Part shown: piece after piece, positions 1 through 41,917 of the stretch
Layout: the number at the start of each line of letters is the position of its first letter
How positions within the stretch are numbered: the stretch's first letter is position 1
From: a virus
Taxonomy: Duplodnaviria; Caudoviricetes
Reading direction: 5' to 3' (one strand)
Length of the DNA stretch: 42,126 nt
IMG/VR virus record: IMGVR_UViG_3300012838_000029
Location: 1 to 42,126 of that record
Notes under the pieces: generated by a model
Databases searched by the model: none
The model's input: the letters and a program-made list of their open reading frames with translations, nothing else
What the model was told of the DNA's origin: nothing
Translations under genes and position numbers: made by a program

Positions 1-1077
1 GTGCCGCCCGAGGTGGACCTCAGCGGCCTGACCTTCATGCCGCTCGACGTGCAGCGCCTGCGCGACAGCGAGCTGGTCTCCGACGCCTCGCCGCAGGAGT
101 TCCGCGCGGCGGTCCTGCTGTGGTGTGCGGCCTGGCACCAGGTGCCGGCGGCGAGCTTGCCCGACAAGGACTCCACACTTGCACGCCTGGCGGGCTTCGG
201 TCAGTCGCCGTCCGAGCTGCGCGCGTGGCGCAAAGTGCGTGAAGGAGCGCTGCGCGGCTTCGTCCTCTGTCGAGATGGACGCTTGTATCACCCGGTTGTC
301 GCCGAGAAGGCACTCGATGCGTGGTCCGAGCGCAGAGAGGTGCAGGGCATGCGCGAAGCCGAAAGCGTGCGCAAGCGGCGGGAACGCGCATGGCGCTCGG
401 CGGCAACGGACGTGCTGCGAAATCACGGCATCGTCTTGGAATACAACGTGACCACCGGCGAACTCCGCAAGCGCATGGAGTCGCTCGGGTACGTCATCGT
501 GGTTGATGAATCCTTCTCCGCGTCCGTGACAGGTCCGCGTGACAGTCACGGACGGGCTACGGCTAAGAAGAGAAGTGAAGTGGAGGGGAGTGAAGAGGAG
601 TGGAGTGGAGAGGAGAGAAGAGAAGCTGTTAATACAAAAGCTGCGCGCGCAGCAGAGGGAGACAACAGCCCAGCAGCACAGCTCGCTGCGGTGCTCGCGG
701 CAGCGCACGGTCGGCCGGTGGCCGCCGATGACCCGGAGGTACAGCGGGCAGTAACCGAGGGGATCTCGAAGGCCGAGCTGGAAGCGGCATGCGCGGGCGT
801 GGTGGGCGGCAAGCCGCCGCGGTACTACGTGCAGCGCGCCATCGGCCGGCGCCTGGATGCCAAGGGCAGTACGCCGGCCGCACCCGCTGCCACACGGCCC
901 AGAGATCCCGATGCGGAAGCGCGGGCCGAGCGGCGCCGGGCGATCGAGGACCAGATCATCGACGTGCGCCACTGCGCCGATCGCGGCATCGGGGACTGGA
1001 CGCCGGAGCGCGCCGCGGCACGCATCGCCGAGCTGCAGACGGAGCTGGCCAGCCTGGCCGAGGAGGTGGTCTCGTGA
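1..1077 (+). CDS. DUF1376/YdaU-family phage replication protein (true start may lie just before the window)
   Basis: N-terminal 'FMPLDVQRLRDSEL...AAVLLWCAAWHQVPAASLPD..LARLAG' is typical of DUF1376. Contains an internal repeat tract. Confidence 0.8.
   Translation: MPPEVDLSGLTFMPLDVQRLRDSELVSDASPQEFRAAVLLWCAAWHQVPAASLPDKDSTLARLAGFGQSPSELRAWRKVREGALRGFVLCRDGRLYHPVVAEKALDAWSERREVQGMREAESVRKRRERAWRSAATDVLRNHGIVLEYNVTTGELRKRMESLGYVIVVDESFSASVTGPRDSHGRATAKKRSEVEGSEEEWSGEERREAVNTKAARAAEGDNSPAAQLAAVLAAAHGRPVAADDPEVQRAVTEGISKAELEAACAGVVGGKPPRYYVQRAIGRRLDAKGSTPAAPAATRPRDPDAEARAERRRAIEDQIIDVRHCADRGIGDWTPERAAARIAELQTELASLAEEVVS
521..640 (+). repeat. Putative replication origin inside the initiator gene: iteron-like repeats plus 12 tandem purine pentamers
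   Basis: CGTGACAG at 525-532 and 538-545. 10-bp inverted repeat CGTCCGTGAC (521-530) / GTCACGGACG (545-554). Twelve tandem (A/T/G)G(A/G)AG pentamers at 566-625, followed by TTAATACAAAA. Confidence 0.6.
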
Positions 1078-1388
1078 CCGCGTTCTCGCAGGCATTGCGC
1101 GCAAGCGTAGTTGGGCAGCCCGCTCACATGGCCGGAGAGCCCTACGCCAGCGCTGCTAACCCGCTGGGCGCAGCCGGAAAGGTTAGATATTCGTTAAGGA
1201 AACCAAACCCGGCGGCCGGGGTCAATAGAATCAATGGGTTACGCTGTGCCCGCGCCGGTCGGGGCGGGCCACGGACCCCACCCCCCCTTCGCATCAGCCC
1301 GCCCGGGAAGGGGGGCGGCCAACTATTGGCCCCTCGAAAAATGGGAGGGGTACATGGGCCACTCCCCCGGCGCGAGGTGCGAGCGTGA
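1074..1388 (+). CDS. Possible 104-aa 'bridge' ORF across the structured IHF region
   Basis: GTGA overlaps with the upstream stop (1074-1077) and the downstream start (1385-1388). Low-complexity product with no recognisable family. Confidence 0.35.
   Translation: MTAFSQALRASVVGQPAHMAGEPYASAANPLGAAGKVRYSLRKPNPAAGVNRINGLRCARAGRGGPRTPPPLRISPPGKGGGQLLAPRKMGGVHGPLPRREVRA
1229..1241 (+). promoter_or_regulatory. IHF binding site consensus
   Basis: AATCAATGGGTTA is a perfect match to WATCAANNNNTTR, in a locally AT-rich patch of a GC-rich genome. Confidence 0.6.
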
Positions 1389-2542
1389 GCGCGGCGCGGG
1401 CGGAGAGCCCGGCGGAGGTGCCGCAGCTGCCCGCTGCGGTGCTGGAGGCGCTGGCAGGCGTGCCGAATGGGCAGGAGCTGCTCGGCTACCGGGCGCGGCT
1501 CCTGGCGCGCCCTGGCGGGTTCCCGGCGGTGATGGCGCGAGTGGAGGCCCTGCCGATGGCGCCGGCGGCGCTGGCGGAGTTGTGGACCTGGCTGGTGCAC
1601 CTGGCCATCGACTGCGGCTCTCGGCCGGAGACCACGGGGCAGAGCTACGGGCGGACGGTCGGGCGGTTCCTGTCCTGGTGCCACCGGGAGGGCGTTGACC
1701 ACCGCACGGCAGCCCTCAAGGACTTCGAGCGCTGGCAGCGGTGGCTGGCCTTCGAGCTGAAGAACCGGGAGACTTGGCGGGCGCAGCAGGTGTTCGCCCT
1801 GCGGAATTTCTACGACTGGCGGCGCAGCCGCGGCCTGGCCCAGGCCAACATCGCCGCGGACCTGCGCGGGCCGCGGGTGAAGCCGCGGCCGCCGCGAAAG
1901 TACACCACCGAGCAGCTCAAGGCGCTGTTCCGCGCCATCGCCCAGGCGCGCAGCGACCGGGTGGTGCGCGACCGCTGCGCGGTGCTGCTGCTCCTGGCCA
2001 CCGGCCTGCGACGCGAGGAGTTGGCGTCGCTGGAGCTGGGCTCGATCGAGCTGACACGCCGGCACGGCGTGGTGCGGGTCCAGGGCAAAGGCGCCAAGCA
2101 GCGTGACGTGCCGTTCGAGGGGCCGGCGGTCGACGCGCTGCACGAGTGGCTGCAGCACCGCGACCAGCTGCCATGGATCGTCGACACCGAGTCACTGTTC
2201 GTCTCGCTCACCGGGCCGACGCAGGGCCGCGCCCTTGCGCTGCGCAGCTTCGAGACCATGGTGGGCACCCACGCCCGGGAGGCGAAGCTGCGGGACTGGG
2301 GCATCCACCGGTTCCGCGTCACCTTCGCCACGCAGCTGTACGACGACGGCGCGGACATCGAGACGATCCGCGCCCTGATGGGCCACGAGACCATCGAGAC
2401 CACGCGCCGCTACCTGGCGGTATCCGAGCGCGCCCGTCGCACCCGCCTGCGCGCGGACCGCCAGCACGCGGTCCTCGGCACCAAGCCCACCGGTACGCCG
2501 ATGTGGGTCCGCCTGGCGGCGGGGGAGCTGACCCGTGATTGA
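1385..2542 (+). CDS. Tyrosine recombinase, XerC/XerD-like (no arm-binding domain evident)
   Basis: Complete catalytic set: GLRREE (R), GKGAKQR (K), HRFR (HxxR), LMGH (H), TRRY (Y). SAM-like N-terminal domain. Confidence 0.92.
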   Translation: MSAARAESPAEVPQLPAAVLEALAGVPNGQELLGYRARLLARPGGFPAVMARVEALPMAPAALAELWTWLVHLAIDCGSRPETTGQSYGRTVGRFLSWCHREGVDHRTAALKDFERWQRWLAFELKNRETWRAQQVFALRNFYDWRRSRGLAQANIAADLRGPRVKPRPPRKYTTEQLKALFRAIAQARSDRVVRDRCAVLLLLATGLRREELASLELGSIELTRRHGVVRVQGKGAKQRDVPFEGPAVDALHEWLQHRDQLPWIVDTESLFVSLTGPTQGRALALRSFETMVGTHAREAKLRDWGIHRFRVTFATQLYDDGADIETIRALMGHETIETTRRYLAVSERARRTRLRADRQHAVLGTKPTGTPMWVRLAAGELTRD

Positions 2543-2933: not shown

Positions 2934-3688
2934 CCCGCCGTCCGCCCGCCGTCCGGAAGAAGCGCCAGCTCAGCGAAGCCGAGCTGGCCCAACGCCGCGC
3001 CGCCTCCCGCAAGGGCGCCGAGGCGGCGACGGGCCCGCGCACGCCGGAGGGCAAGGCCCGCAGCTCGCGCAATGGCTGGAAGCACGGCCTCACCAGCGCC
3101 GTGCACCGGCAGCACTTCGACCAGGGCATGGCCGCGCTGATGGGCTCCCTGGCCAAGCCATGCCTGTCCACCTGCCCGAAGTACCCCTGCTACGCCGTCG
3201 AGGCGGAGATGACCGCGCCTGGCGGCAGTTGCATGGACAAGGAGCGCTACGTCCACGCCTTCACCGCGATCATCGACGCGGTCGAGAACAACGCCTCGGA
3301 GGGCATGAACGCCCTGATGGCCAGCGAGGTCGCCAGCACCCTGCAGATGCTCCACGACATGAAGGCCCGCTGCGCGGACCTCGGCCCGATGATCGGCATT
3401 CAGGCGGTCACCGCCGATGGCGTCGCGGTCTACGGCAAGGACGGCGAGCCGGTCATGGCCAAGTGGGTGCCGAACCCCGGCTGGCCGGTCGTGCTCAAGA
3501 CCCTCGAGGTGCTGGGCATCAGCCTGCCGGAACTGCTGGCCACGCCGCAGGCCAAGGCCCGCGCAAAGGTGGAGGGCGAACAGGTCGACGCCGTGCAGCA
3601 GCTGATGGGCGGCATCTTCCAGCGCGCCGCCGCGGCGCGGCTGCCCGCGGCCGGTGGGCGCGTGATCGACCACGACGAGGGCGGCTGA
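2930..3688 (+). CDS. terS: Probable terminase small subunit
   Basis: Directly upstream of and coupled to terL. 'TGPRTPEGKARSSRNGWKHGL' motif and a Cys cluster (CLSTCPKYPC). Confidence 0.6.
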   Translation: MTRRPPAVRKKRQLSEAELAQRRAASRKGAEAATGPRTPEGKARSSRNGWKHGLTSAVHRQHFDQGMAALMGSLAKPCLSTCPKYPCYAVEAEMTAPGGSCMDKERYVHAFTAIIDAVENNASEGMNALMASEVASTLQMLHDMKARCADLGPMIGIQAVTADGVAVYGKDGEPVMAKWVPNPGWPVVLKTLEVLGISLPELLATPQAKARAKVEGEQVDAVQQLMGGIFQRAAAARLPAAGGRVIDHDEGG

Positions 3689-5562
3689 TGCGCCAGCGCA
3701 GCGCCACCGGCATCCTGCAGGCGCAGATGCTCGATCGCGGAGTGTACGAGCCCGACGAGTTCGAGCAGTGGCTGGCGGAGCGCGGCTGGTCCTGGCGCGG
3801 CCTGGACCGCGGCGCCTATGGGCTGACCGTCGACGAGGCGCTGTTCGTGTTCACCTGCGAGGACCCGCTGCGCTGGGCGGAGACGTACCTGGTCGAGCCG
3901 GACACCGGCGACCCGTACCGGTTCTGGGATTACCAGCGGCCGAGCGTGCGCGCCTGGATGCAGGACGTGATCCACCAGGACGGCGCGGAGTGCGGCAAGA
4001 CGCGCGAGATCATCGCGCTGATCGCGTGGTCGGGGTGCACCTCGGTGGGCGGGCGCATCGCCAACCCGTGGTCGCTGGTGGCGGCGCCGCAGCAGACCCA
4101 CCTGGACGAAATCATCCTCGCGCTGGAGGAGCAGTTCGGCGCAGCCGAGTCGGGCAAGGGCCACAGCCTCCTGTCTCGCTTCTGGCTCAAGCCGAAGAAG
4201 ACCCCGCACGTGATGCACCGGTTCCTCGCGCCCAACCCGGTCAACCCGGCGCGGCCGAGCATCGCGCGCACTTACTACCGGCCCGGCGGCCATGACGGCG
4301 AGGCTTTCCGCGGCGTGCACGTCAACGCCTTCGGCTTCTTCGACGAGGCGGCCAAGGTCAAGAACGCGGTGATCTTCTCCGAGTTCTGGCGCGCCCTGAA
4401 ACCCGGCTGCCGCTCGCGCGTCTACTCCGTGCCCGACGGCGACCGCAGCACGGAGTACTTCAAGCTCACCCAGACCGCACGGCTCAACCTGCCGGAGGAC
4501 CAGGACGGCTTCCGCCTGTTCCGCTGGCAGCAGCCGATGAAGCCGCCGCCGTTCTGGGATGCCAAGCGCGAGGCGGACATGGTGCGCCGGTTCTCCGGCC
4601 GCAACACGCCCGGCTACCAGCGCAACGTCCTGGGCGAGTGGGGCCAGGCCGAGAACCCGGTGTGGCCCTTCGGCGCGCTGCTGCCCAACGTGGTGGATCT
4701 GCCGGACTACCGCGTGATCAAGCTGCAGGCCGACGCGGAATCCGACTCGCTGAGCATCGAGGTCATGGCGGTGACGCTCACCGTCCAGGACGGCCGCAAG
4801 GTCGGCGAGTACCGCTGGCTGCAGGACTCGGCCACCGGCCTGGCCGAGCTGCTGCGCGGCAGCGACGACGGCCGCCGCCAGGCCATGGCCGCGATCCTGC
4901 GCCCGCACATCCCGGCGGTGTCGCAGGGCGTGTTCTGGGCCGGCGCCGACCTGGGCGAGCGCAACGACCCCACCGAGATCATCCTCAGCGAGGAGGTCGG
5001 CACGCTCTGGCGCGACAAGGTGCGCATCCACGCCAAGGGCTTCCCGTACAACCTGCAGAAGGAGCTGATCGCCGCGCTGGACAGCCTGTTCGGCAACCTG
5101 CCGTTCTGGGGCGCGGACCTCGGCAGCGCCGGCACCACCGTGGTCAAGGACCTGATCGCCGAGGACCGCTTCGCGGACCTGCACTTCGAGGACCGGATGA
5201 TCGGCTTCCACTTCCAGCAGTCGGTCGAGTGCATCGGCGAGGACGGCGAGGCACTGGAGGACGAGGACCCGCGCACGGGAACCCGCAAGGTGATCGCCGC
5301 GCCGGCCAAGCACTGGGCCACCCAGTGCATCTCCGCCCGGCTGCAGGCCCACGGCTACGCGCTGCCGTACGACCCCGAGGCCATGACCTCCATGGCCACC
5401 CAGACCGCCCGGCAGGGCGCCCGCTGGCCGATCTACTCAAAGCAGTTGGACCACTTCCCCGACGCACGCCGCCAGCAGATGTTGCGGAAGATCCGCAGCG
5501 TGATCGACGACGGCGGCGGCGTGGACCTGTTCGCCAGCGGCGTGGTGGAGCGCGCGGCGTGA
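3688..5562 (+). CDS. terL: Terminase large subunit
   Basis: Walker A-like GAECGKT, Walker B FFDEAA, nuclease GADLG..ND motif and C-terminal DHFPDA. 624 aa; ATG overlaps the terS stop. Confidence 0.88.
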   Translation: MRQRSATGILQAQMLDRGVYEPDEFEQWLAERGWSWRGLDRGAYGLTVDEALFVFTCEDPLRWAETYLVEPDTGDPYRFWDYQRPSVRAWMQDVIHQDGAECGKTREIIALIAWSGCTSVGGRIANPWSLVAAPQQTHLDEIILALEEQFGAAESGKGHSLLSRFWLKPKKTPHVMHRFLAPNPVNPARPSIARTYYRPGGHDGEAFRGVHVNAFGFFDEAAKVKNAVIFSEFWRALKPGCRSRVYSVPDGDRSTEYFKLTQTARLNLPEDQDGFRLFRWQQPMKPPPFWDAKREADMVRRFSGRNTPGYQRNVLGEWGQAENPVWPFGALLPNVVDLPDYRVIKLQADAESDSLSIEVMAVTLTVQDGRKVGEYRWLQDSATGLAELLRGSDDGRRQAMAAILRPHIPAVSQGVFWAGADLGERNDPTEIILSEEVGTLWRDKVRIHAKGFPYNLQKELIAALDSLFGNLPFWGADLGSAGTTVVKDLIAEDRFADLHFEDRMIGFHFQQSVECIGEDGEALEDEDPRTGTRKVIAAPAKHWATQCISARLQAHGYALPYDPEAMTSMATQTARQGARWPIYSKQLDHFPDARRQQMLRKIRSVIDDGGGVDLFASGVVERAA

Positions 5563-5566
5563 GCGG

Positions 5567-5761
5567 CTATCGCTTGGTCAGCTCGCCATCTTCGAGCGCT
5601 TCAAGCCAGCGCTTCTGGTACGTCTCGGCCTGCGAAAGTCTGGCGAGCAGCGCGAAGACGATGCTTAGGCCGACCAGCCCCAGCCCCAGAGTTGCAGGCG
5701 TCAGCCAGTACAGGCCCGCCGCGCCAAGCGCGATGGCGATCAGGGCGATCAAGAGGTACAT
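5567..5761 (-). CDS. Small two-TM membrane protein (antisense moron, 64 aa)
   Basis: MYLLIALIAIALGAAGLYWLTPATLGLGLVGLSIVFALLARL...; GGAGGGG Shine-Dalgarno upstream on the minus strand. Confidence 0.65.
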   Translation of the reverse strand: MYLLIALIAIALGAAGLYWLTPATLGLGLVGLSIVFALLARLSQAETYQKRWLEALEDGELTKR

Positions 5762-5795
5762 GCAGTTTCCCCTCCACATGGGTGTGTCGGGGAGC

Positions 5796-5824
5796 TTGAC
5801 ACGGGCATGGAACGGGCGCATCTT
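5796..5824 (+). promoter_or_regulatory. Sigma70 promoter for the C4/RadC cassette
   Basis: TTGACA (5796-5801)-N17-CATCTT (5819-5824), immediately upstream of the c4 target hairpins. Confidence 0.65.
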
Positions 5825-5832
5825 CCGCCCCG

Positions 5833-5909
5833 CAGCGGCAAATTCCGCTGTCGGGGTTGGAAGCCCGAACCGAAGGCGCACAAGCGCCGTCCATGACCGG
5901 CGTTTTTTT
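5833..5909 (+). promoter_or_regulatory. c4-a1b1-like target hairpins and terminator-like hairpin
   Basis: CAGCGG-CAAATT-CCGCTG hairpin. TCGGG-GTTGGAAG-CCCGA hairpin whose loop is complementary to the C4 segment CTTCCAAC. CGCCG...CGGCG followed by T7. Confidence 0.7.
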
Positions 5910-5918
5910 GTGCCCGCG

Positions 5919-5996
5919 TTATGGCGGGCGGTGCGTGGACGCCGCAAGGCGTGCCGGTCCTTCGGCCGGTCTTCCAACCGCGCACCGTCCGCCACC
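5919..5996 (+). ncRNA. c4: C4 antisense RNA (P1 c4 / P4 CI-like)
   Basis: Closing stem TGGCGGGCGGTGCG (5922-5935) / CGCACCGTCCGCCA (5981-5994), GCAA-loop and CCGG hairpins. Single-stranded CTTCCAACC (5971-5979) is complementary to GGTTGGAAG (5855-5863) and TTGGAAG (6001-6007). Confidence 0.8.
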
Positions 5997-6044
5997 CTGT
6001 TTGGAAGCAGGTCGGCGGACTCCAACATGCCGAAGGAGTCCCGC

Positions 6045-6635
6045 ATGACTGACCATGCTGCCGCGCGCCGTGCGCGCGAAGACCGGGCCATCGCCCGGGC
6101 CCTGAATATCCTCCATGCCCGCCATGCCGCCCAGGGCCAGCTGCTTGACCCGCCGGCTGCGCGCGCCCTGTTCGCGCTGCGCTTGGCGGGTGAGGTGCGC
6201 GAGCACTTCGAGGTGGCCTTCCTCAACACAAGGCACGAGCTGCTGGGCGTTGAGCGCCTGTTCTCCGGTGGACTGGCCGGCTGCATCGTCAGCCCGCGCG
6301 AGGTGGTGCGCACCGCCCTGCGCTACAACGCCGCCGCCGTGATCCTGGCGCACAACCACCCCAGCGGCCACGTTGAGCCCTCCCGCGCCGACCACGACCT
6401 CACCGACACTCTGCGCACCGCGCTGGCGGTGATAGAGGTGCGCGTGCTGGATCACATCATCGTCGGTGGCCGCGACACCACCGCCTTCGGCGGGCCGGAC
6501 TGCACTGTCACCCGAGAGCGGCACGCGCAGCGCGAAGCCTGGCAGGCGCGGATTGCTAAGAAGAACGCGGCTGCCGAGAAGGCGCGGGAGACGCGCCGCC
6601 GGAAACGCGCCGTGGCAGTGGGAGCCAGGCCATGA
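6045..6635 (+). CDS. radC: RadC-like JAB/MPN domain protein
   Basis: REHF...SPREVVRTALRYNAAAVILAHNHPSG..EPSRAD...VLDHIIVG is an intact JAB motif. SD AAGGAG at 6033-6038. Confidence 0.9.
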   Translation: MTDHAAARRAREDRAIARALNILHARHAAQGQLLDPPAARALFALRLAGEVREHFEVAFLNTRHELLGVERLFSGGLAGCIVSPREVVRTALRYNAAAVILAHNHPSGHVEPSRADHDLTDTLRTALAVIEVRVLDHIIVGGRDTTAFGGPDCTVTRERHAQREAWQARIAKKNAAAEKARETRRRKRAVAVGARP

Positions 6636-7387
6636 ACTACGGCGAGAATGATCCGATCTTGGTCGAGGCCATCGCCAGCGGCAAGTACATGGTTACTCCG
6701 GACGGCCGTGTCTGGAACCTGGACTTCCGCGGGACGGGCCGCCCCGTGGAATGCAAGCAACACATCAACACCGCGGGCTATTTGGTAGTCACCGTGGAGA
6801 TGTCGGGCCGGAAGGTTGGAGCCCTCGTGCACCGCCTTGTGCTGCTGCGTTATCTGGGGGCTCACCCGGAGCGGCGGGTAGCCAACCACCGGGACGGAGT
6901 AAAGACGAACAACCACATCGACAATCTGGAGTGGGTGGAGCAATCCGACAATGTGAAGCACGCATGGGCGGCGGGGTTGAGAGGTTCCAGCCCAGGTTTC
7001 AAGGCCAAGTTGACGGATAATGACGTGCGGCGTCTTCACGAGCTGAGCGAAGCAGGGCGCACGCGTGGCCAGATCGCTTTCGCTTTGGGCGTGACGCCAT
7101 CGGCGGTGGAGAATGTCCTCCGCGGGCGTAGTCATGCAGCGATCTCGCCCTTGCCAAAGGAGCGCGAGCGCGGCCGCCGTGGGATGCCCGACGAAGGATG
7201 GGCGGCGAAGCTGACCCCGGACCAGGTGCGCCAGATTCACCGGGAGTACATGCCGCACAGCCGCGCCCACGGGCTTCGAGCCATTGCTCGCCGGTTCGGT
7301 CTGAGCCGGGGCACTATCGCGAATATCGTCAGTGGGAAATCCTGGCCCCACATCTACCGCGAGTTTCACCCCGAGGTGCAGCCGTGA
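6632..7387 (+). CDS. HNH endonuclease with two C-terminal HTH-like DNA-binding repeats
   Basis: VHRLV...ANHRDGVKTNNHIDNLEWV..SDNVKH. Two repeats AKLT..V..I......IA..GV/LS...I.N...G.S. Confidence 0.88.
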   Translation: MNYGENDPILVEAIASGKYMVTPDGRVWNLDFRGTGRPVECKQHINTAGYLVVTVEMSGRKVGALVHRLVLLRYLGAHPERRVANHRDGVKTNNHIDNLEWVEQSDNVKHAWAAGLRGSSPGFKAKLTDNDVRRLHELSEAGRTRGQIAFALGVTPSAVENVLRGRSHAAISPLPKERERGRRGMPDEGWAAKLTPDQVRQIHREYMPHSRAHGLRAIARRFGLSRGTIANIVSGKSWPHIYREFHPEVQP

Positions 7388-7758
7388 GCCGCGGTGACGA
7401 GGCGGCCTGCGCTCCCGACTCCGCTCGGCTGTTCGCCGACCTGCAGGCGTGGCACGCCACCATGCGCGAGATGGAGGCCAACAGCCGGCAGCTGTGCACG
7501 GCCCTGCGCTGCGGTCCAGACCTGCCCCTGCTGCAGAGCGCCTGGGCGCTGGCCTATGGCTACATCGCCCAGCTCGCCGCCCGCCATGGCATCGATGCGC
7601 ACTGGCTCACCTGGTGGTGGGAGGAATGCCGGCTGGGCGACACCCCGGCCGACTGTGCGCTGCCGGGCGCCCCCCCCAACACCATCAGCACCGTCGCCGA
7701 GCTGGCTGCCGTGATCCTGGCGGACCGTGCCCGCCCCCCACAGGAAGAAGCCGCATGA
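7384..7758 (+). CDS. Hypothetical phage protein
   Basis: GTGA and ATGA coupling at both ends; globular-looking sequence containing WLTWWWEEC. Confidence 0.6.
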   Translation: MSRGDEAACAPDSARLFADLQAWHATMREMEANSRQLCTALRCGPDLPLLQSAWALAYGYIAQLAARHGIDAHWLTWWWEECRLGDTPADCALPGAPPNTISTVAELAAVILADRARPPQEEAA

Positions 7759-9899
7759 ACCTCAACCCCCTGCGCCTTTTCGGCCGCAAGTCCACCGATC
7801 CCACCCGCAACCAGGGTGGAGGGGTGGTGGCCTCCATCCGTGACCAGCAGCCGCTCGGGCCATGGTCGGACATCCTCACCGGCTGGCAGCCGCGTGCTGT
7901 CTCGCCCTGGCTGTACGAGGCGCTGAAGGAGGCGCTGCCCATCCTGGACGCCGGCATTGGCCGGCTGGTGACGCTGGATGGCATCCTGGAGGTGGAGGGC
8001 GACAACGACCGCGTCGTCGGCATCATCGAGGAGTGGATGCGCAACGTGCCGGTCAACGACCTGGAGACCGGCTACCAGGCGGCCTACGCCAGCCAGGCCG
8101 AGGAGATGAACGAGCAGGGCCACGGCATCATCGAGTACGTGTACGACGACAAGGGCCGCGAGGTGGTCGGCCTGCGCGTGGCCGACTCGAAGGGCACGGC
8201 CTTCGTCCGCGACACGGACCGCATGCGGATCTTCTACCGCGCGCCGCGCAACCACGGCGACCGCCGGCCGGATGGCCTGGGCCAGGTGGAGCGCATCCTC
8301 ACCGGGCAGGTACGCGGGGAGGTGACCACCAGCATGCTCGGCCAGGTGGGTTATGTGGAGCTGGACCCGGCGCAGCTGGTGGTCTCCGTGCACCGGCCGG
8401 AGGCGGACAACCCCTACGGCACCTCGCTGCTGCGCAGCATCCCGTTCGTCGCCCAGAACCTGCTGCGCATGCAGAACGCCACGGGCCGGGTGTGGACCCG
8501 CTTCGGTGACCCGTCGTTCCATGTGCAGTTCAGCACCAAGAGCCCGAAGATCAACGCGGAGGAGGCGCACCGCCGCGCCACGGCCATTGCCAAGGACCTG
8601 GCCACCGCCCTGGTCGCCAAGGAGCGCGGCAACAGCGTGGACCTGGCCACCGGCGTGGGCATGAACGACACGATCACCATCGACGTGATCGGCGCCGTGG
8701 GTGAGGCACTGAGCATCGACCTTCCGGCAAAACACATGATCGAGCAGATCGTCGCAGCGTTCGGCATCCCGGCGTGGATGCTGGGCGTGTCCTGGGCGCA
8801 GGCGGCCGGCATCGCCGAGCCGCAGTCCGAGCTGGTGCTGCAGGACAGCCGCACGCGATTCGCCCGCCGCGAGGCCGGGTTGCGCCGGCCGATCGAGGCA
8901 ATGCTGCGCGGCCGCGGCATCACCTGGAAGCCTGGCGACTGGAAACTCACCCAGCGCCTGCCCAGCCTGCACGACGAGGTGAAGCGTGCCCAGGCCGGCT
9001 TCCTGATCGCCCAGACGGCGATGATGGGCCGCGGCACGGAGGAGGGCGCGGGCAACCCGCGCGGCATCGACAACAACCTGCGCACCTCCCGGGGCGGGTT
9101 CCGCAAGGCGCACGGCTGCCGCCACAAGGCGCCGGACGACGAGGCCGGCGGCGGCGAGTCCTGGGCGGAGGACGATCCGGCGCTGCCGGTACTCGAGCGG
9201 GACACGCAGGCGGCGGTGCTGCGCGACTGGCACCGCCTGCGCGACCAGGTGATCGCCCTGGCGGTGCCGGACCGTGCGGCCGAATCCTGGGCGTTCGACC
9301 TCGCACAGCTGCCAGCCATCGTCACCCGCGTGGACGCGGCCGCGCCGGCCATGACCGTCACCCTGCTGGTCGGTCAGCTCGGCGCCTGGGAGCGGGGGGT
9401 GGACAACGCCCTGCGCGAGCGACGCGGCAAGGCCGCCCGGGCCAAGGCGGTGTGGGATGACGACCCGGCCCTGGCCAAGATCGTCAACGCCATGCGCAGC
9501 GCGGCGCGCGAGTACCTGCGCGAGCGCGGCCTGGTGTACGTGCAGGACGGGCTGGACCGCGTGCTGCGCGAGCAGGTGATCGCTGCGCTGGCCGGTGGCG
9601 CCTACGACGGACTCAACGCGCTGGCGGTCGCCGAGCAGCTGGAGCGCCGCTTCGGCGCCGGCGACTTCAACTGGGAGCGGCTGGCACGCAGCGAGATCGC
9701 CGAGGCGCAGGTGGACGGCAAGCTGGACCTGTACGCCGAAGAAGGCCTGAACGAGTACGAGCTGGTGGCGGCGCCCGATGCGTGCCCCACGTGTCTGCGG
9801 CTGGCGGCGGGCGGCCCGTACCGCATCGGCGACCCGGACGCACCACGGCCGGTGACCGACACGCATCCGAACTGCCGCTGCTCGGTCGGCCCCGTGTGA
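7755..9899 (+). CDS. Portal protein fused to a Mu gpF/SPP1 gp7-like minor head domain
   Basis: Portal-like 'DNPYGTSLLRSI...FGDP...IVAAFGIPAWMLG'. C-terminal 'ERLARSEIA...CPTC...HPNCRC' gpF signature. 714 aa. Confidence 0.82.
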   Translation: MNLNPLRLFGRKSTDPTRNQGGGVVASIRDQQPLGPWSDILTGWQPRAVSPWLYEALKEALPILDAGIGRLVTLDGILEVEGDNDRVVGIIEEWMRNVPVNDLETGYQAAYASQAEEMNEQGHGIIEYVYDDKGREVVGLRVADSKGTAFVRDTDRMRIFYRAPRNHGDRRPDGLGQVERILTGQVRGEVTTSMLGQVGYVELDPAQLVVSVHRPEADNPYGTSLLRSIPFVAQNLLRMQNATGRVWTRFGDPSFHVQFSTKSPKINAEEAHRRATAIAKDLATALVAKERGNSVDLATGVGMNDTITIDVIGAVGEALSIDLPAKHMIEQIVAAFGIPAWMLGVSWAQAAGIAEPQSELVLQDSRTRFARREAGLRRPIEAMLRGRGITWKPGDWKLTQRLPSLHDEVKRAQAGFLIAQTAMMGRGTEEGAGNPRGIDNNLRTSRGGFRKAHGCRHKAPDDEAGGGESWAEDDPALPVLERDTQAAVLRDWHRLRDQVIALAVPDRAAESWAFDLAQLPAIVTRVDAAAPAMTVTLLVGQLGAWERGVDNALRERRGKAARAKAVWDDDPALAKIVNAMRSAAREYLRERGLVYVQDGLDRVLREQVIAALAGGAYDGLNALAVAEQLERRFGAGDFNWERLARSEIAEAQVDGKLDLYAEEGLNEYELVAAPDACPTCLRLAAGGPYRIGDPDAPRPVTDTHPNCRCSVGPV

Positions 9900-9900
9900 T

Positions 9901-9948
9901 CGCACAAGGGGTGCCACTGAAAGGGGCGACAGTGGCACCCCTTGTGCG
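9901..9948 (+). promoter_or_regulatory. Late-promoter/activator motif, copy 2, extended to a perfect 19-bp inverted repeat
   Basis: CGCACAAGGGGTGCCACTG-AAAGGGGCGA-CAGTGGCACCCCTTGTGCG, upstream of the head operon. Confidence 0.75.
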
Positions 9949-33844: not shown

Positions 33845-34335
33845 TGCACGCCATCCTGACCACCCCCGCGTTCCCGCCGCGACCGGCCCAGCAGGGCAGG
33901 GCGACAGGGCCGACTGCGGCCGAGCCCACCTCCGAGACCAGCCGCCAGCTGGAGCAGGCCCTGAGCCAGTTGGAGGAGGTCGCTGCGCGGCAGCGGGGAA
34001 CCGCCCAGGCCGGGCGCACCCTGGCCGACGTCTGCGCCCGCCACCTGCGGGCCAACCAGCCGGCGGCGCACCAGCCGCGGGCCGCCGTCCGCCACGCCGG
34101 CAACCCCATCCGGGAGGCGCGGGCGAAGGCCGGGCTGTCCCTGCAGAAGCTGGCGGCGCGCCTGGGCATCACCGCCAGCTGCCTCCACTACTGGGAGACC
34201 GACGGCAACTTCATCGGCGTGGACCGCCTGCGGGAGCTGCGCGCCGCGCTGGCCCCGCACTTCGACCTCGAGGCGTATCTGGCTCACGCCGAGCGGGTAG
34301 GGCGCACCCGCGGGCGTGCGGAGAGGGGCCGCTGA
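33844..34335 (+). CDS. XRE HTH protein
   Basis: C-terminal 'IREARAKAGLSLQKLAARLGITASCLHYWET'. Confidence 0.75.
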   Translation: MHAILTTPAFPPRPAQQGRATGPTAAEPTSETSRQLEQALSQLEEVAARQRGTAQAGRTLADVCARHLRANQPAAHQPRAAVRHAGNPIREARAKAGLSLQKLAARLGITASCLHYWETDGNFIGVDRLRELRAALAPHFDLEAYLAHAERVGRTRGRAERGR

Positions 34336-35093
34336 TGGACACCCTCGTCCCGGCCATCGGCTACATCCGCGTCAGCACGCAGGAGCAGGCGGCCAACGGC
34401 CACAGCATCGAGCAGCAGCGCGTGCGGCTGGAAGCCTGGGGCCTGGCGCGCGGCCTGCGCTACGTGGACATCCTGGTGGACGCCGGCGTCTCCGCCGGCA
34501 AGCCGCTGCACAAGCGCCCGGGCGGGGCCGAGCTGCTGCGCCGCATGCGCGCCGGCGAGGCCGAGGTGGCCGTGGTCGTGTCGATCGACCGCATGTTCCG
34601 CGACGCCCAGGACGGCCTCAACACGCTGCTGGGGCAGGGCAGGGAACCCGGCCTGCCGCTGCAGTCGGTGACCGACCCCTGCGACACCACCACCGCGATG
34701 GGCCGCTTCATCCTCACCGTTTGGCTGGCCCGCGCGCAGCTGGAGCGCGAGCAGACGTGCGAGCGCAACGCCGCCATCGCCCGCGGCCTGCGCCGCGCCG
34801 GCCGCCCCAACGGCTTCACCCCCTACGGCTGTGTGCTGGTGGACGGCCAGCTGTACCGCGACCCGGCCACGTGGCCGGTGCGCGAGCAGATCGTCGCGCT
34901 CGCCGCCCAGGGCCTGGGCACCCGCGCCATCGCCACCCGCCTGGCTGAGCAGGGCATCGCCGCTCCCCTCGGCGGGGCGCGCTGGTCTAAGACGTCGGTG
35001 GGCCGGGTGATCGAGTCGCATGACGGGCTGAACCATATCCCCGCGCTGCCCGGCGCAGAAGAAAGCCGCATTTCACAGGAGCCCACCCCATGA
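34335..35093 (+). CDS. Serine recombinase (resolvase domain plus short recombinase DNA-binding domain)
   Basis: 'GYIRVSTQEQ' catalytic Ser, 'DAGVSAG...RPG', 'IDRMFR', 'DTTTAMGRF', 'PYG', 'W....V.R'; 252 aa. Confidence 0.9.
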   Translation: MDTLVPAIGYIRVSTQEQAANGHSIEQQRVRLEAWGLARGLRYVDILVDAGVSAGKPLHKRPGGAELLRRMRAGEAEVAVVVSIDRMFRDAQDGLNTLLGQGREPGLPLQSVTDPCDTTTAMGRFILTVWLARAQLEREQTCERNAAIARGLRRAGRPNGFTPYGCVLVDGQLYRDPATWPVREQIVALAAQGLGTRAIATRLAEQGIAAPLGGARWSKTSVGRVIESHDGLNHIPALPGAEESRISQEPTP

Positions 35094-38195: not shown

Positions 38196-38512
38196 ACGAC
38201 GCCGACTTCATCGCCGCCATGCAGCAGGGCCTGCCGCCGCTGCCGAAGGGGCTGGAAGTGCTGGAGCTGGGCAACGCAGACCTCTCGGCGTCCAGCACCT
38301 GGACCGGCCGCACCGAGCCGAACGAGGCCGCGCCGCTGCCGCAGTACCCGCAGCGGGATGACCTGCCCGAGACGCCTGAGAAGCCGCTCACCTTCGCCGA
38401 GGCCATGGAGCGCAGCGCCCGCCGCCTGGCGCTGGCTGACACGGCCTTCTGCGCGCTGTTCTTCCTGGTGGGCGCCGGCGGCGCGCTGCTGCTGGGAGGT
38501 ATCGCGGCATGA
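38192..38512 (+). CDS. Hypothetical protein with C-terminal TM segment
   Basis: GGAGG SD; ATGA coupling at both ends. Confidence 0.6.
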   Translation: MNDADFIAAMQQGLPPLPKGLEVLELGNADLSASSTWTGRTEPNEAAPLPQYPQRDDLPETPEKPLTFAEAMERSARRLALADTAFCALFFLVGAGGALLLGGIAA

Positions 38513-39468
38513 CCACCATCACCCCCTTCCGCCGCAGCCCCGTCAGCGCCATGAGCATCGCCGACGGCGTCGTCCACTACCTGCAGCGGCTGCAGCGGCG
38601 CAACCGCAGCCTCAACACGCTCAACGCCTATCGCAGCGACCTCAGCCAGTTCGCCGGCTTCCTGCAGCGGTTGGGGCAGGGCGACCTGGTGGCCACGGTG
38701 GGCCAGGCCCAGGTGTCGCGTTGGCTGGATGACCTCTCCGCCGAGGGCGTCAGCCCGCGCAGCCAGGCGCGCAAGCTCTCCGTGCTGCGCGGGTTCTACA
38801 AGCATGCGATGCGCGAGGGCTGGATCGGCTTCGACCCCACCGCCGACGAGTCCGTGCGATTCCGCGCGGCGCGGGTCATCGCGCCGGAGATGGACGAGCT
38901 GCACGCGGTGATCGACGCCATCCCGCGCCAGGGCTGGCGCAACCTGCGCGATCGGGCGCTGCTGCGCCTTGCCCTGGACACCGGCGCCCGCATCAGCGAG
39001 CTGGGCGGGCTGGACGTGCCGGGCAGCCCCTCGCAGTCCGTGGTGGACCTGCGCCGCGGCCTGGCCCACGTGCTGGCCAAGGGCGGCGATATCGACACCC
39101 TGCCGTTCAACGCCGCCACCGGCCGCATGGTCGAGGACTGGCTCGCCGCCCGCCCGGAGGTGGCCAGCCCAGGCCACGCTGCCTTGTTCGTCAGCAACCG
39201 CGGCAACCGCTGCAGCCGCGCCACCCTGCACCAGGTATGCAAGCAGCGCGGCGAGGCAGTGGGCCTGCGCCTGCACATGCACCTGTTCCGCCACCGTCGC
39301 GGCTCCATGGTCATCGAACGCTGCGGCGACAAGCTCGGCCAGCAGTTCCTGCGCCACCAGAGCCTGGCCACCACCAGCCAGTACGGCCGCCACGCCAACA
39401 ACCGCACGCTCGGCGTGATCCGCCAGCTGGCGGATATCGACGAGGGGAGGGTGGCATGCAACGGATGA
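38509..39468 (+). CDS. Second tyrosine recombinase, XerD/XerC-like
   Basis: 'SLNTLNAYRSDLSQF...SPRSQARKLSVLRGFYK' SAM-like domain; catalytic TGARISE, AKG, HLFRH, LRH, TSQY. Confidence 0.92.
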   Translation: MTTITPFRRSPVSAMSIADGVVHYLQRLQRRNRSLNTLNAYRSDLSQFAGFLQRLGQGDLVATVGQAQVSRWLDDLSAEGVSPRSQARKLSVLRGFYKHAMREGWIGFDPTADESVRFRAARVIAPEMDELHAVIDAIPRQGWRNLRDRALLRLALDTGARISELGGLDVPGSPSQSVVDLRRGLAHVLAKGGDIDTLPFNAATGRMVEDWLAARPEVASPGHAALFVSNRGNRCSRATLHQVCKQRGEAVGLRLHMHLFRHRRGSMVIERCGDKLGQQFLRHQSLATTSQYGRHANNRTLGVIRQLADIDEGRVACNG

Positions 39469-39761
39469 TCGCCCACCCCGAAGGCCTGCCCGCTTGCCGC
39501 AACGGCCACCCCGCGCGCCATATCCAGGACGCCCGCGCCCTGCGCGCCGGCGGCGGCCACCTGCTCGAGTGCCGCTGCTGCCACACCGGCAAGCACGCCG
39601 ACTACGACGACGCCCTGCGCGAGTGGTGCCAGGCCCACGGCCACCCGGCACCGAGCGTCGAACCCCAGCGGCCGCTGCCGCTGGGCAATGTCACCCCGCT
39701 GCACCGCCACCGCGCGGCTGACGCCTTCGGCGCCGGCGAGCGGCTCCCCTCTGCCCGTTGA
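39465..39761 (+). CDS. Cys/His-rich hypothetical protein
   Basis: 'CRNGHPARHIQDAR...GGGHLLECRC'. Confidence 0.65.
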   Translation: MIAHPEGLPACRNGHPARHIQDARALRAGGGHLLECRCCHTGKHADYDDALREWCQAHGHPAPSVEPQRPLPLGNVTPLHRHRAADAFGAGERLPSAR

Positions 39762-39769
39762 GGTCTGTC

Positions 39770-40030
39770 ATGTCCGACCAGAACGAAATCCTGTTGCAGG
39801 CGCTGCGCTCCGGCCCGATGACCGCGCTGGAGATCCTGGACACCCTCGGCATCGCCCGCGCCAGCGCCCGGGTCTACGACCTGCGCCGGGCCGGCCACGA
39901 CGTGCGCAGCGAGATGATCACCGTGCACAACCGCCGCGGCGAGCCTTGCCGCGTGGCCGCGTACTCCCTCGCAGTCCAGACGGCAGCGACGCCGAAGGCG
40001 ATCACTTCCGAGCGGATGCGTGCGCAATGA
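39770..40030 (+). CDS. Winged-helix HTH protein
   Basis: 'QNEILLQALRSGPMTALE....GIAR.SARVYDLR..GH.V...MITV......RVAAY'. Confidence 0.75.
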   Translation: MSDQNEILLQALRSGPMTALEILDTLGIARASARVYDLRRAGHDVRSEMITVHNRRGEPCRVAAYSLAVQTAATPKAITSERMRAQ

Positions 40031-40680
40031 GAGCCCTTACTAGCGCCTCGCCATTAAGGCAGTTACTTCTCGACAGAGCCGTCAGCGGCGCCTTTCAGGA
40101 AGAAGCGCTTGAGGCGCGTACGCGCTGTTGCGATCTGTCGAATATCGTCCTCAAAGCGTCCAATGTACTCATCCAGGAAAGCCATCTTAATGGTCAGGTC
40201 TCGAACGGGCGGCACAAGTGGCGGCCCGGACGTGCTTCCGACATTGAACCGCGTGATGACGGCCATGATCTGCGCGGCCGTCTCCCCATCGAAAGCACCC
40301 AGCTGATCCACGAAGCGAAGCGTGAGCTGAAGCGAGGCGCGGGCGTACCTCTCGGCCAAAGCGGTGGCTACCTCCTTGGGCATCCGGTGACCTCGCTCGC
40401 CCTTGGCATCCCCAACCGCTTGACACAGATGCGAATCGAGTTGGGCGAACTCGTTGTCGATCACGCGCGCAAGGCGGTCCGCCGTATGCGCGCGCGCAGT
40501 TTCTGCCTTCTGAGCTTCAAAGCGACGTTGGCTCTCAATTGCGCGTCGGGATTCGCCGGCGGTCCAGAGAGCCACGGCAGCCGCAACGAAGGTGCTGACT
40601 GCACCGACGGCGGTCCAGTCGATCCAACTTCCGAGTGCAGCCCACCAGTCGGCGCCGGCTTGGAGCAAGTGCATGCGTAA
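40027..40680 (+). CDS. Possible 'bridge' ORF overlapping an antisense gene
   Basis: ATGA overlap with the upstream stop; its own stop overlaps the next ATG by 8 nt. May be only a shadow ORF. Confidence 0.3.
   Translation: MRALTSASPLRQLLLDRAVSGAFQEEALEARTRCCDLSNIVLKASNVLIQESHLNGQVSNGRHKWRPGRASDIEPRDDGHDLRGRLPIESTQLIHEAKRELKRGAGVPLGQSGGYLLGHPVTSLALGIPNRLTQMRIELGELVVDHARKAVRRMRARSFCLLSFKATLALNCASGFAGGPESHGSRNEGADCTDGGPVDPTSECSPPVGAGLEQVHA
40063..40674 (-). CDS. N-terminally membrane-anchored protein (antisense moron)
   Basis: 'IDWTAVGAVSTFVAAAVALW' TM segment followed by a helical domain; distinct codon usage. Confidence 0.7.
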   Translation of the reverse strand: MHLLQAGADWWAALGSWIDWTAVGAVSTFVAAAVALWTAGESRRAIESQRRFEAQKAETARAHTADRLARVIDNEFAQLDSHLCQAVGDAKGERGHRMPKEVATALAERYARASLQLTLRFVDQLGAFDGETAAQIMAVITRFNVGSTSGPPLVPPVRDLTIKMAFLDEYIGRFEDDIRQIATARTRLKRFFLKGAADGSVEK

Positions 40681-41080
40681 CCCCCCCGAACCCATCTGGC
40701 GGCATGGTTGCGCCGAGCGAGCACCCTTCGCAAGTCCCCGCCACAGGAGGGAGGTGCTGTGTGCTTCGGGGCAGGGCGCAACGGGTAGGCCAGCCAATCT
40801 GGTTGTTTGCCCGGCCTGTGGCTCGGAAGCTGGGGCCCGCATCTGCTGCGGCGTCGACCTGGCCGCGCCGTTCGTGATGACCACCGCGCGCATCCGCTCG
40901 CTGCGCCGCTACGCCCACGGCATGAAGGGTTTGGACGAGCCGACCTACCGCCTGCACCTGGCTGCAGTCGGCGCCGCCAGCACCACCGAGCTGACGCGCG
41001 AGCAGCACACCGCGCTGCTGCGCCGGCTCGGCGCGCTGCCTAACCGCCCGCGCAAGCGGGGCAGAGGAGCGGCGGCATGA
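40673..41080 (+). CDS. GemA/DUF1018-like protein with CxxC motif (start uncertain)
   Basis: 'KGLDEPTYRLHLAAVGAASTTELTREQ' resembles the Mu GemA N-terminal motif; CPAC..CC. Confidence 0.55.
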   Translation: MRNPPEPIWRHGCAERAPFASPRHRREVLCASGQGATGRPANLVVCPACGSEAGARICCGVDLAAPFVMTTARIRSLRRYAHGMKGLDEPTYRLHLAAVGAASTTELTREQHTALLRRLGALPNRPRKRGRGAAA

Positions 41081-41238
41081 AGCTCGACCAGGAACGCCCC
41101 ATCGCCACGCTCGCCGACGCCATCGCCGCCGCCGAGTTCGCCCTCAACCACACCCCCGAGGGATGCCCCTCGCTGGTGATGCCCTACGCACTTCAGCTGC
41201 TCTTGGCAGCGGCACGGGAGACCAGGTGTGATGATTAA
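41077..41238 (+). CDS. Hypothetical 53-aa protein
   Basis: GAGGAG SD, ATGA coupling; MKLDQERPIATLADAIAAAEF... Confidence 0.55.
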   Translation: MKLDQERPIATLADAIAAAEFALNHTPEGCPSLVMPYALQLLLAAARETRCDD

Positions 41239-41917
41239 GATCGCTCTAATCTGCCAGCGACTCAAGTTCTCGCAGGGCGATCCCGAGGGCTGCATCCGCA
41301 CGATCGAAGATCAGCCCTACGTCCTCTGGCTCCTCCATCTCATCTTCGTCTCCGGTCTCGTGGTCGACGATGACTCCGCCGTACCGCCAGTATGTGTACT
41401 GCGTGTACACGCCGACGCGGACCAGTTCAAATGCAACTACGGCGCGTTGGAGCGCAACACCAGCGTCCTCGAGATGATAGAGCTCGGGGAGCCGGGTATT
41501 CAGCGCGTCCGGGACCACCAGGGGCTCCACGACATCATCGTCGTTGTATCTCTTCGGCACATGCCTCCAGCGGGCCCGTGCAGTCCAGAGCGCACCCTGC
41601 ATAGCTTGTACATGCGGTATCAGGACGAAGGCGAGTGCCCGTGCTCTGAACCGCCTGGTGCGCTCCAACTGAACCCGCTCGTTCCTTGCGATACGCGTCG
41701 GCACGCCAATCGCCACAAGAAGAGCAACGATGGTTCCAATAGCCTGAACCCAAGCCGCTTGGGCCCCCGGCTCAAGCGCACAAAATCCTATCCAGTGACA
41801 GTCCATATCCCCTCCGCTGCCCCTCCGTCTGACTGCCAGTCATTGTCACCTGACTGGAGCCCTAGACGTAGGCGTAGGCTGTTGCACTCTCTCCCCAGGA
41901 CGGGGGCAGCCGGATGA
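41231..41917 (+). CDS. Possible 'bridge' ORF overlapping an antisense gene
   Basis: ATG overlaps the upstream stop by 8 nt; ends in ATGA with the next gene. May be only a shadow ORF. Confidence 0.3.
   Translation: MIKIALICQRLKFSQGDPEGCIRTIEDQPYVLWLLHLIFVSGLVVDDDSAVPPVCVLRVHADADQFKCNYGALERNTSVLEMIELGEPGIQRVRDHQGLHDIIVVVSLRHMPPAGPCSPERTLHSLYMRYQDEGECPCSEPPGALQLNPLVPCDTRRHANRHKKSNDGSNSLNPSRLGPRLKRTKSYPVTVHIPSAAPPSDCQSLSPDWSPRRRRRLLHSLPRTGAAG
41246..41806 (-). CDS. N-terminally membrane-anchored protein (antisense moron)
   Basis: 'AAWVQAIGTIVALLVAIGVP' TM segment; GAGGGG SD. Confidence 0.72.
   Translation of the reverse strand: MDCHWIGFCALEPGAQAAWVQAIGTIVALLVAIGVPTRIARNERVQLERTRRFRARALAFVLIPHVQAMQGALWTARARWRHVPKRYNDDDVVEPLVVPDALNTRLPELYHLEDAGVALQRAVVAFELVRVGVYTQYTYWRYGGVIVDHETGDEDEMEEPEDVGLIFDRADAALGIALRELESLAD

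Follow-up and report, generated by a model that had tools for sequence, protein, structure and literature searches.

Four plus-strand frames bridge interruptions in the operons of a prophage

The window analyzed here is a provirus record of the IMG/VR database (IMGVR_UViG_3300012838_000029), taken at its full length of 42,126 bp. It has a GC content of ~70% and lies within a metagenome contig of 1.02 Mb (L056). The subject of this study is a set of four plus-strand frames, called bridges A to D, that stay open where the operons of this element cross a stretch without a forward gene. A preliminary description of the sequence had claimed that each of these frames overlaps its neighbours at both ends; all four frames and all eight junction motifs were located at the positions it had given.

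The window was mapped by codon-position GC and by family scans (Pfam, PHROG) of its proteins. In the left part, the replication protein gene rep (DUF1376; 1..1077, plus strand; Pfam PF07120, E=1.2e-9; phrog_22470, E=9.6e-62) is followed by a gap of 307 nt, a tyrosine recombinase gene of the integrase family (int; 1385..2542, plus strand; Pfam PF00589, E=1.3e-32), a helix-turn-helix (HTH) gene and a gene without assigned function. In the middle part, an open reading frame (ORF) of 624 amino acids (3688..5562, plus strand; GC at third codon positions 0.97) precedes a cargo island (5563-7754), a portal/Mu F-like gene (7755..9899, plus strand; phrog_30703, E=2.8e-34) and the head, tail and lysis genes. 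The right part contains a minus-strand repressor region (32.5-33.5 kb) and then a plus-strand early operon that continues to the right end. The 624-residue ORF had been named terL. Because no terminase match was obtained by sequence, with Pfam and PHROG scans (E<=0.01) and PDB sequence searches all empty, this label is positional only (upstream of the portal gene), and we refer to the gene as the terL-like ORF.

Bridge A (1074..1388, plus strand) is an open frame of 104 codons over the 307-nt gap between rep and int, a region of conserved cis blocks without an antisense gene. Its GTG at 1074 lies over the rep stop (TGA 1075-1077), 12 nt downstream of a GGAGG motif, and its stop (TGA 1386-1388) lies over GTG 1385 of int, generating GTGA at both ends. 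Bridge B (5559..6635, plus strand) begins with GTG 5559 over the stop of the terL-like ORF (TGA 5560-5562) and is stop-free to 6635. Its first 162 codons (5559-6044) run over an antisense gene, a terminator-like hairpin and a C4 RNA gene, before the frame continues into the gene for a RadC-like protein. Bridge C (40027..40680, plus strand; 217 codons) lies opposite the backward ORF asC. It starts with ATG 40027 over TGA 40028-40030 (ATGA), has no Shine-Dalgarno (SD)-like motif, and its stop (TAA 40678-40680) overlaps ATG 40673 by 8 nt. Bridge D (41231..41917, plus strand; 228 codons), opposite the backward gene asD, is preceded by GGGAG; its ATG 41231 overlaps TAA 41236-41238 by 8 nt, and its stop (TGA 41915-41917) lies over ATG 41914 (ATGA).

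Overall, NTGA is found at six of the eight joints (A at both ends, B and C at the 5' end, the stop of B on the start of an HNH gene, and D at the 3' end), with 8-nt overlaps at the 3' end of C and the 5' end of D. SD-like motifs are located 10-14 nt upstream of A, B and D. Overlap of a stop with a co-directed start, the mark of coupled ORF pairs, was found in the window and in relatives alike. The bridges (104-358 codons) are mutually unrelated and the inserts vary among relatives, unlike a short, repeated, mobile unit. Codon register with the antisense gene, another feature of the preliminary description, applies to C with asC and to D with asD, but not to B, which shares third positions with its antisense gene.

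The bridge peptides matched no family in Pfam or PHROG scans, and a look-up in a protein collection of the products from starts 1074 and 1128 (A) and 5559 (B) found none present. Public gene calls conflict at two of the loci: some deposit the bridge peptides C (217 residues) and D (228 residues), others the backward genes (203 and 118 residues).

In the window, the other two plus frames over 5563-6044 contain only 1 and 2 stops, and P(open) for bridge B is ~0.05-0.2 for the gene part x 0.41 for the non-coding part. In asC, 0 TTA, CTA or TCA codons were observed versus ~1.5 expected after calibration (see below), which is compatible with chance. Since the window-only signal is weak for B and C, the decision had to rest on relatives. 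These were collected with the terL-like ORF as query, giving 60 loci (32 viral, 10 genomic and 18 metagenomic) at 50-89% identity. They are prophages of Lysobacterales/Xanthomonadales (Stenotrophomonas, Pseudoxanthomonas, Lysobacter, Luteimonas, Xanthomonas, Rhodanobacter, Dyella and Frateuria). Among isolated phages, the only megablast match was a partial one to Microcystis phage MACPNOA1, at 74% over 13% of the query; the right end matched nothing. Relatives are referred to by locus labels (L004, L046, etc.) and the window, where listed with them, as WIN; P0002 is a protein label.

The rep-int gap is kept open independent of the peptide

Bridge A was open in 13 of 14 distinct relatives, namely 12 of the 13 loci with rep and int that were scored automatically, and L018. 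In all of these 12 loci the frame ending on the TGA over the int start contained 0 stops across a gap of 307-373 nt and the other two plus frames contained 2-6 stops each; the gap length mod 3 was 1, and an NTG start lay over the rep stop. Dinucleotide shuffling of the individual loci gave P(open) values of 0.014-0.31. An alignment of 11 loci (A1) showed the TGA over the int start to be invariant and the rep stop to be overlapped by NTG in 11/11.

Between L015 and L035, substitution rates at the three codon positions of bridge A were 0.23/0.23/0.22; the corresponding values were 0.12/0.05/0.43 for int and 0.03/0.03/0.14 for rep. As to the reading phase of the conserved block CGAAAAWT, 2 loci use phase 0, 4 use phase 1 and 7 use phase 2. 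The flat substitutions, together with the reading of blocks in all three phases, indicate that the blocks are cis elements and that the peptide is unconstrained. In bridge A, both joints are conserved, and it is openness that is under selection, not the peptide.

The preliminary description had also located an integration host factor (IHF) region within bridge A. A site at 1229..1241 (plus strand) matches what we take to be the IHF consensus, WATCAANNNNTTR, with 2 consensus matches in the window versus 0.04 expected. This site belongs to a block conserved in the alignment, but its orientation varies: plus strand in the window and in L004, minus strand in the remaining nine aligned relatives. 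In total, the gap (1078-1384) contains five conserved DNA blocks in A1; among them, a C7 run is separated by 54 nt from a G-rich block, with which it makes up an imperfect inverted repeat. Candidate roles for this element are those of a late promoter, a recombination site or a packaging site. Two other assignments were dropped: an excisionase-like gene, in view of the flat substitution rates and frame-shifted conserved blocks, and a phage attachment site (attP) used by the provirus, as the provirus contains the gap uninterrupted and, in L046, the prophage ends on the left at host tRNA genes upstream of rep.

Backward cargo at the terL-like/portal junction

Region 5563-7754 of the window represents inserted cargo, as seen from several relatives in which terL-like stop and portal start overlap directly. 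The island begins with a backward gene for a membrane-type protein of 64 residues (5567..5761, minus strand), recognized by its translation and frame plot and called as a gene by several sources; this is the gene with which bridge B shares third positions. A terminator-like hairpin with a T7 run follows (5882..5912, plus strand), the sequence of which is kept in L046, and then the gene for a C4 antisense RNA (5917..5999, plus strand; Rfam RF01695, 73.9 bits versus a gathering score of 45; 72.4 bits in L046). Complementarity exists between the C4 loop (5958-5966) and the RadC ribosome-binding site (6029-6037), and between 5971-5977 and 6001-6007; an upstream complementary set is present at 5855-5876. 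In agreement with the preliminary description, bridge B passes from C4 in frame into the gene for the RadC-like JAB protein (6045..6635, plus strand; Pfam PF04002, E=2.9e-37), but this gene has its own start, ATG 6045, preceded by the SD sequence GAAGGAG. The stop of B overlaps the start of the HNH endonuclease gene (6632..7387, plus strand; phrog_59, E=4.2e-40; ATGA), which in turn is joined by a GTGA overlap to an ORF of 124 residues with a homolog in L060 (7384..7758, plus strand).

The island is not present in the closest relative, L004. Its C4-RadC part is ~90% identical in the Stenotrophomonas prophage L046, which has another backward gene. From complementarity, C4 and its complementary sets (5855-5876 and 6001-6037) are predicted to form an immI-like unit that governs RadC in place of icd/ant.

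Of 38 distinct intervals, 35 have an NTGA overlap between the terL-like stop and the start that follows, and in 36 the ORF chain reaches the portal gene. Most junction inserts are ordinary forward genes, for example DUF6527, a Mom-like gene or phrog_15779. In four distinct relatives, the 40-46 nt from the terL-like stop to the portal start are filled by relay ORFs that comprise 15-20 codons and have an ATGA joint at either end (L004, 5795-5842; L006, 7863-7916; L047, 6854-6916; L048, 6872-6922).

Backward cargo occurs at this junction in eight distinct loci, and in 8/8 one plus frame is open and coupled at both ends. The inserts are diverse: the 64-residue membrane-type gene in WIN; a lipoprotein-like ORF in L046, ahead of the same C4-RadC cassette as in the window; DUF4145/phrog_1305 in L011 (E=9.5e-39); phrog_37309 in L016 (E=5.5e-38); and one membrane-anchored family in L012, L061, L062 and L064. 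In this last group the minus strand is coding, since substitutions peak at plus-frame position 1 and are lowest at position 2, and the bridge peptides are unrelated save at the C-terminus. The bridge frame of L046 has 444 open codons and 0 stops (Markov P=0.003), whereas the two alternative frames contain 7 and 13. Relatives that keep the pattern include ones with inserts of 56-62% GC and 7-13 stops in the non-bridge frames. Together with bridge A, these eight loci bear out the expectation that relatives with different antisense cargo keep the open frame and the end overlaps, not the peptide.

In L012 (2901-3539) a stop codon interrupts the backward gene, which is likely a pseudogene; the forward frame of 212 codons is still open, with ATGA at both ends. 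Two more small frames of the window reach toward the next gene and are possible mini relay ORFs: 9896-9970 (24 codons, GTGA on the portal stop) and 21997-22107 (36 codons, TTGA on the stop of a tail gene).

The early operon and the asD family

Bridges C and D belong to an unbroken chain of plus-strand frames (39758-42126). It begins with an HTH_39 gene (39758..40030; Pfam PF14090, E=3.7e-13), the stop of which is overlapped by the start of bridge C. Downstream of C lies an ORF (40673..41080) in which conservation among relatives is confined to the C-terminal ~90 residues; the open chain runs on through its N-terminal part, with a flat frame plot over 40680-40800. A gene of 53 residues (41077..41238; homolog in L045, E=3e-9) then leads to bridge D, the stop of which is overlapped by the start of a 70-residue ORF (41914..42126).

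The backward ORF opposite bridge C, asC (40063..40674, minus strand), would encode 203 residues with an N-terminal hydrophobic helix and is a candidate coding strand. A homolog search with asC found only the window's own gene call. As asC is without homologs, bridge C rests on analogy and on its place in the chain.

In the case of bridge D, the backward gene asD (41246..41806, minus strand; 186 residues) encodes a membrane-anchored protein of a widespread prophage family, which shares 43% identity with P0002 across 98% of its length. ESM Atlas models gave a predicted local distance difference test (pLDDT) score of 0.77 for the asD protein and 0.32 for the bridge D peptide. Judging from the identity to P0002 and the Atlas score, asD is a real protein. 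The low score of the opposite peptide agrees with the suggestion that bridge products are non-globular, for D, the bridge with an Atlas result.

An alignment query recovered the asD family at 22 viral loci (L074-L095); asD as a single query against IMG/VR matched nothing. Members have ~170-200 residues and matched no Pfam or PHROG family. Their N-terminus is nearly invariant (M.C..IGWC......QAAWVQA.GS), a membrane helix is present, and the C-terminal part varies. In the loci examined, the gene has the backward orientation within a lambdoid nin-like region, flanked by a NinB/Orf gene on one side and a phrog_1588 gene on the other, with a DnaB-like helicase upstream and a RusA-like resolvase downstream. 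Our guess is that it acts as a prophage-expressed membrane protein such as an exclusion factor.

TTA, CTA and TCA codons are absent at 20 of the 22 loci. At the embedded loci examined, an operon-strand frame extended from the upstream stop to the downstream start in 15/15, with NTGA at each end in 14 loci and a 1-nt overlap in one. The 15 distinct embedded asD genes comprise 2713 codons. CTN and TCN codons ended in A in 0/300 cases versus 215/1066 (20%) in the other four-fold families, and TTA accounted for 0/41 TTR codons (Fisher P=6e-26). This removes exactly those codons that read as stops on the operon strand. Note that third positions in these genes are nearly saturated (mean difference 0.67 over 105 pairs). 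Two family members that are not embedded (L081 and L082) carry 2 and 8 of these forbidden codons.

Codon-position divergence marks the asD frame as the selected coding frame (0.12/0.05/0.35 for L076/L077). Peptides of the bridge frame average 20% identity, and score 0.28 BLOSUM per site versus 1.48 in the asD frame, in alignments built in the asD frame and favouring it.

These data bear on the possibility that the bridge ORFs encode functional proteins, each locus being a true antisense overlapping gene pair. Some gene callers do call C and D, and exclusion activity has been reported in Pseudomonas phage Fc02 for a gene of the lytic operon that itself lies over a backward exclusion gene (PMC9936078). 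However, the bridge A substitutions are flat and its conserved blocks shift in frame, the asD-family bridge peptides show the low identity and BLOSUM score given above, and those of the L012 group have only their C-terminus in common. With no family matches, the low Atlas score of D and no purifying selection found on the second-frame peptide, we consider functional bridge proteins improbable.

Stop avoidance exceeds ordinary codon bias

Nine embedded minus-strand genes (1630 codons; junction cases pooled with others) contained 0 TTA, CTA or TCA codons versus 15.7 expected (P=1.5e-7). Shuffling third bases among four-fold codons overestimated forbidden codons in controls (6 observed versus 14.6 expected), and the null was recalibrated on 27 plus-strand control genes (34 observed versus 67.7 naive). 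The preliminary description had named a codon-based null for comparison; the counts in embedded genes, those of the asD family included, fall below it. Members of two cargo families found elsewhere offer little power: among phrog_37309 relatives (9 loci, 7 examined; genes of 85-104 codons) the backward member L100 has 2 forbidden codons and co-oriented members have 1 and 0, and the only further DUF4145 relative is L106.

The under-use of TTA, CTA and TCA in the control genes would be in line with cargo genes avoiding these codons for their own translation efficiency in GC-rich hosts, the open antisense frame following passively. Against such a by-product, other A-ending codons make up 20% of the four-fold codons in the same genes in which CTA and TCA are missing altogether, and L081 and L082, which are not embedded, do use the forbidden codons. 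Moreover, bridge A is without an antisense gene, and the joints at both ends are left unexplained. We regard this explanation as very improbable.

Chance has to be considered in the same context: the bridges might be ordinary shadow ORFs of high-GC DNA, with end overlaps picked out by the reader. The preliminary description had cautioned that such frames are often open by chance at high GC, and for B and C in the window alone the caution was justified; shadow ORFs of 573-805 codons exist in the window, and TGA stops often follow a G, A or T. Against chance, the pattern is kept in junction relatives with inserts of lower GC content and numerous stops in the other frames, the length of the A gap is conserved mod 3, and the codon usage of the opposite gene fails to explain openness, as documented by the asD family. 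Once relatives are included, openness is beyond chance for A, B and D, and for these three the chance reading is largely refuted; overall we give it very little credence.

Relay of ribosomes as the favoured function

The data show selection against operon-strand stops, conserved joints at both ends and an unconstrained peptide. We propose that the four frames are relay frames, held open by selection so that ribosomes translate the operon-strand mRNA across stretches without a forward gene, and we assign this reading a probability of roughly 0.55. After termination at the upstream stop, a ribosome would start again on the bridge, cross the backward gene, cis-element gap or C4 RNA gene, and terminate on the next start codon, thereby handing translation on by termination-reinitiation. 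As a secondary effect, ribosome cover may shield the nascent RNA from Rho, and in B also from the terminator-like hairpin. In bridge B, the frame from upstream fused to RadC would keep the RadC-HNH-ORF-portal chain, with its essential portal gene, running regardless of C4; given the complementarity of the C4 loop to the site of ribosome binding at RadC, which parallels P1 immI, this frame would bypass repression by C4.

The preliminary description had interpreted the bridges as coverage spacers that prevent Rho polarity and relay translational coupling. In a strict form of this idea, the frames would be selected mainly as ribosome cover against Rho (in B also against the intrinsic-terminator hairpin), the overlaps being merely the points at which ribosomes get on and off. 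The bridged stretches of 300-730 nt are long enough for Rho loading, and a terminator-like hairpin with a T7 run lies within B and is kept in L046. As had been noted from the sequence, no N or Q antiterminator was recognizable: neither family was matched among the 55 proteins scanned, many of which are without any family. The P1 immI system presumably includes a Rho step. There, control of icd translation by C4 governs ant expression (PMC8198154), and according to a review, Rho loads onto untranslated RNA and translation influences Rho-independent termination (PMC12548453).

Several features are nevertheless not accounted for by cover against Rho. The 3' ends of the bridges fall exactly on the next start codon almost always, which cover alone does not demand. 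The relay ORFs of 15-20 codons in L004, L006, L047 and L048 are too short to matter for Rho, as they span gaps too short for Rho protection. In addition, the asD-family loci sit in lambdoid nin-like regions, where antitermination is common. Termination-reinitiation, on the other hand, is reported to need an overlap or a very short distance (PMC10666635). For these reasons relay is favoured over Rho avoidance, and we consider cover as the main selected function unlikely, though clearly less so than the alternatives discussed above. Of the earlier interpretation, selection for openness is thus established in relatives, and a function in relay is what we infer from it. Shielding from Rho, and in B from the hairpin at 5882-5912, remains live as a second function.

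A number of observations weigh against the relay reading. Judged from the 70% GC window by itself, B and C do not exceed chance, and the long minus-strand shadow ORFs mentioned above lie over plus-strand genes elsewhere in the window, as is common at this GC content. The control genes, too, contain fewer TTA, CTA and TCA codons than expected (ratio 0.5), and ordinary codon bias thus accounts for part of the depletion; the BLOSUM comparison carries the alignment bias stated with it; and the end joints of the asD family may be inherited rather than repeatedly evolved, because the loci share synteny. In L016, a one-base length change leaves the bridge A frame open from the rep stop but extends it 133 nt beyond the int start. 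L032 has a TAA stop, an uncoupled gap of 1136 nt and plus-strand cargo with spacers. In L100 (phrog_37309 family) and L106 (a DUF4145 relative, apparently broken), the gene is backward with 2 forbidden codons each and without an open frame. In view of these four exceptions, the design is not obligatory. Furthermore, several downstream genes have SD-like motifs of their own (GAGG for int, GGAG for the ORF at 40673, GAAGGAG for RadC) and may therefore not need reinitiation. The sequencing runs containing the element comprise 24 DNA and 0 RNA runs.

Other recombinases of the element

The element contains three recombinases (1385-2542, 34335-35093 and 38509-39468), two of the tyrosine and one of the serine type. 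The tyrosine recombinase adjoining bridge A is kept upstream of the packaging genes in all relatives. As it is intact inside the provirus, it may not be the enzyme or site of integration. Within the serine recombinase/invertase ORF (34335-35093; phrog_95, E=4e-49), ARAGORN called a 95-nt tRNA-Arg(TCG) at 34935-35029 (plus strand). This call is probably spurious, because Rfam reported no tRNA there at the gathering threshold.

Implications

The relay reading may extend to a general rule of temperate phages: within a coupled operon, any stretch without a forward protein must stay translatable on the operon strand. Such a rule would cover backward cargo, RNA genes and cis regions; cargo would give up three sense codons, and the frames would be selected purely as ribosome conduits. 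We see the prospects of this rule, taken as a whole, as evenly balanced.

If true, synonymous codon choice in cargo genes would be dictated by the need for a readable opposite strand, a constraint missing from codon-usage and gene-finding models. This would account for the disagreement of gene callers at such loci; loci like C and D seed protein databases with meaningless sequences. It would also provide a rule by which payloads could be placed in phage operons while polar effects are avoided, and allow one to ask how far long phage operons rely on unbroken translation versus dedicated antiterminators. Finally, it would flag a widespread backward cargo family, with zero TTA/CTA/TCA and NTGA at both ends as a signature of horizontally acquired prophage cargo.

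Comparison with known systems

A search of full-text literature (with subscription journals outside its coverage) found no paper on operon-strand frames kept open across backward genes. The closest general precedent is coupling by termination-reinitiation at overlapping stop and start codons such as ATGA or TGATG (PMC6728339, PMC10666635, PMC12548453). The bridge joints are of this kind, being -4 (NTGA), -1 or -8 overlaps of co-directed ORFs. They differ in that one partner is a frame of 100-440 codons whose product is not selected and which runs antisense through a gene, or through an RNA gene or cis region.

Short ORFs have been described that may serve solely for ribosome delivery, and mycobacterial MIRUs insert with a -4 coupled ORF, doing little harm to expression (PMC12548453). 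As with the bridges, the only role of such an ORF is to pass the ribosome on, and the products of A and of the asD-family bridges are likewise unselected. MIRUs are short, repeated and mobile, whereas the bridges are long and non-repetitive, and are kept by a synonymous-codon constraint on the backward gene or, in A, over cis blocks.

The immI system of P1/P7 (C4, icd, ant) resembles the window in its C4, with a loop that complements the ribosome-binding site of the following gene, and in a second complementary set upstream. In both, translation of an upstream ORF would govern downstream expression, as described for immI (PMC8198154) and as we infer for the window. Unlike in immI, the controlled gene of the window is RadC, not icd/ant, the cassette is inside the packaging operon, and an upstream frame fused to RadC would bypass C4.

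The pair olg1/gene 10 of Pseudomonas phage Fc02 likewise combines a lytic-operon ORF with a gene on the lysogenic strand, in antisense, in a GC-rich temperate phage. Both ORFs are treated as functional proteins in that report (PMC9936078), in contrast to the unconstrained operon-strand peptide found here. Shadow ORFs, finally, share with the bridges their length and their codon register with a real gene, and a stop depletion of unknown function, not fully explained by codon bias, has been reported for them (PMC3454372). In the bridges, by contrast, the depletion is tied to a backward gene within a coupled operon and to both joints, and it vanishes outside that context.

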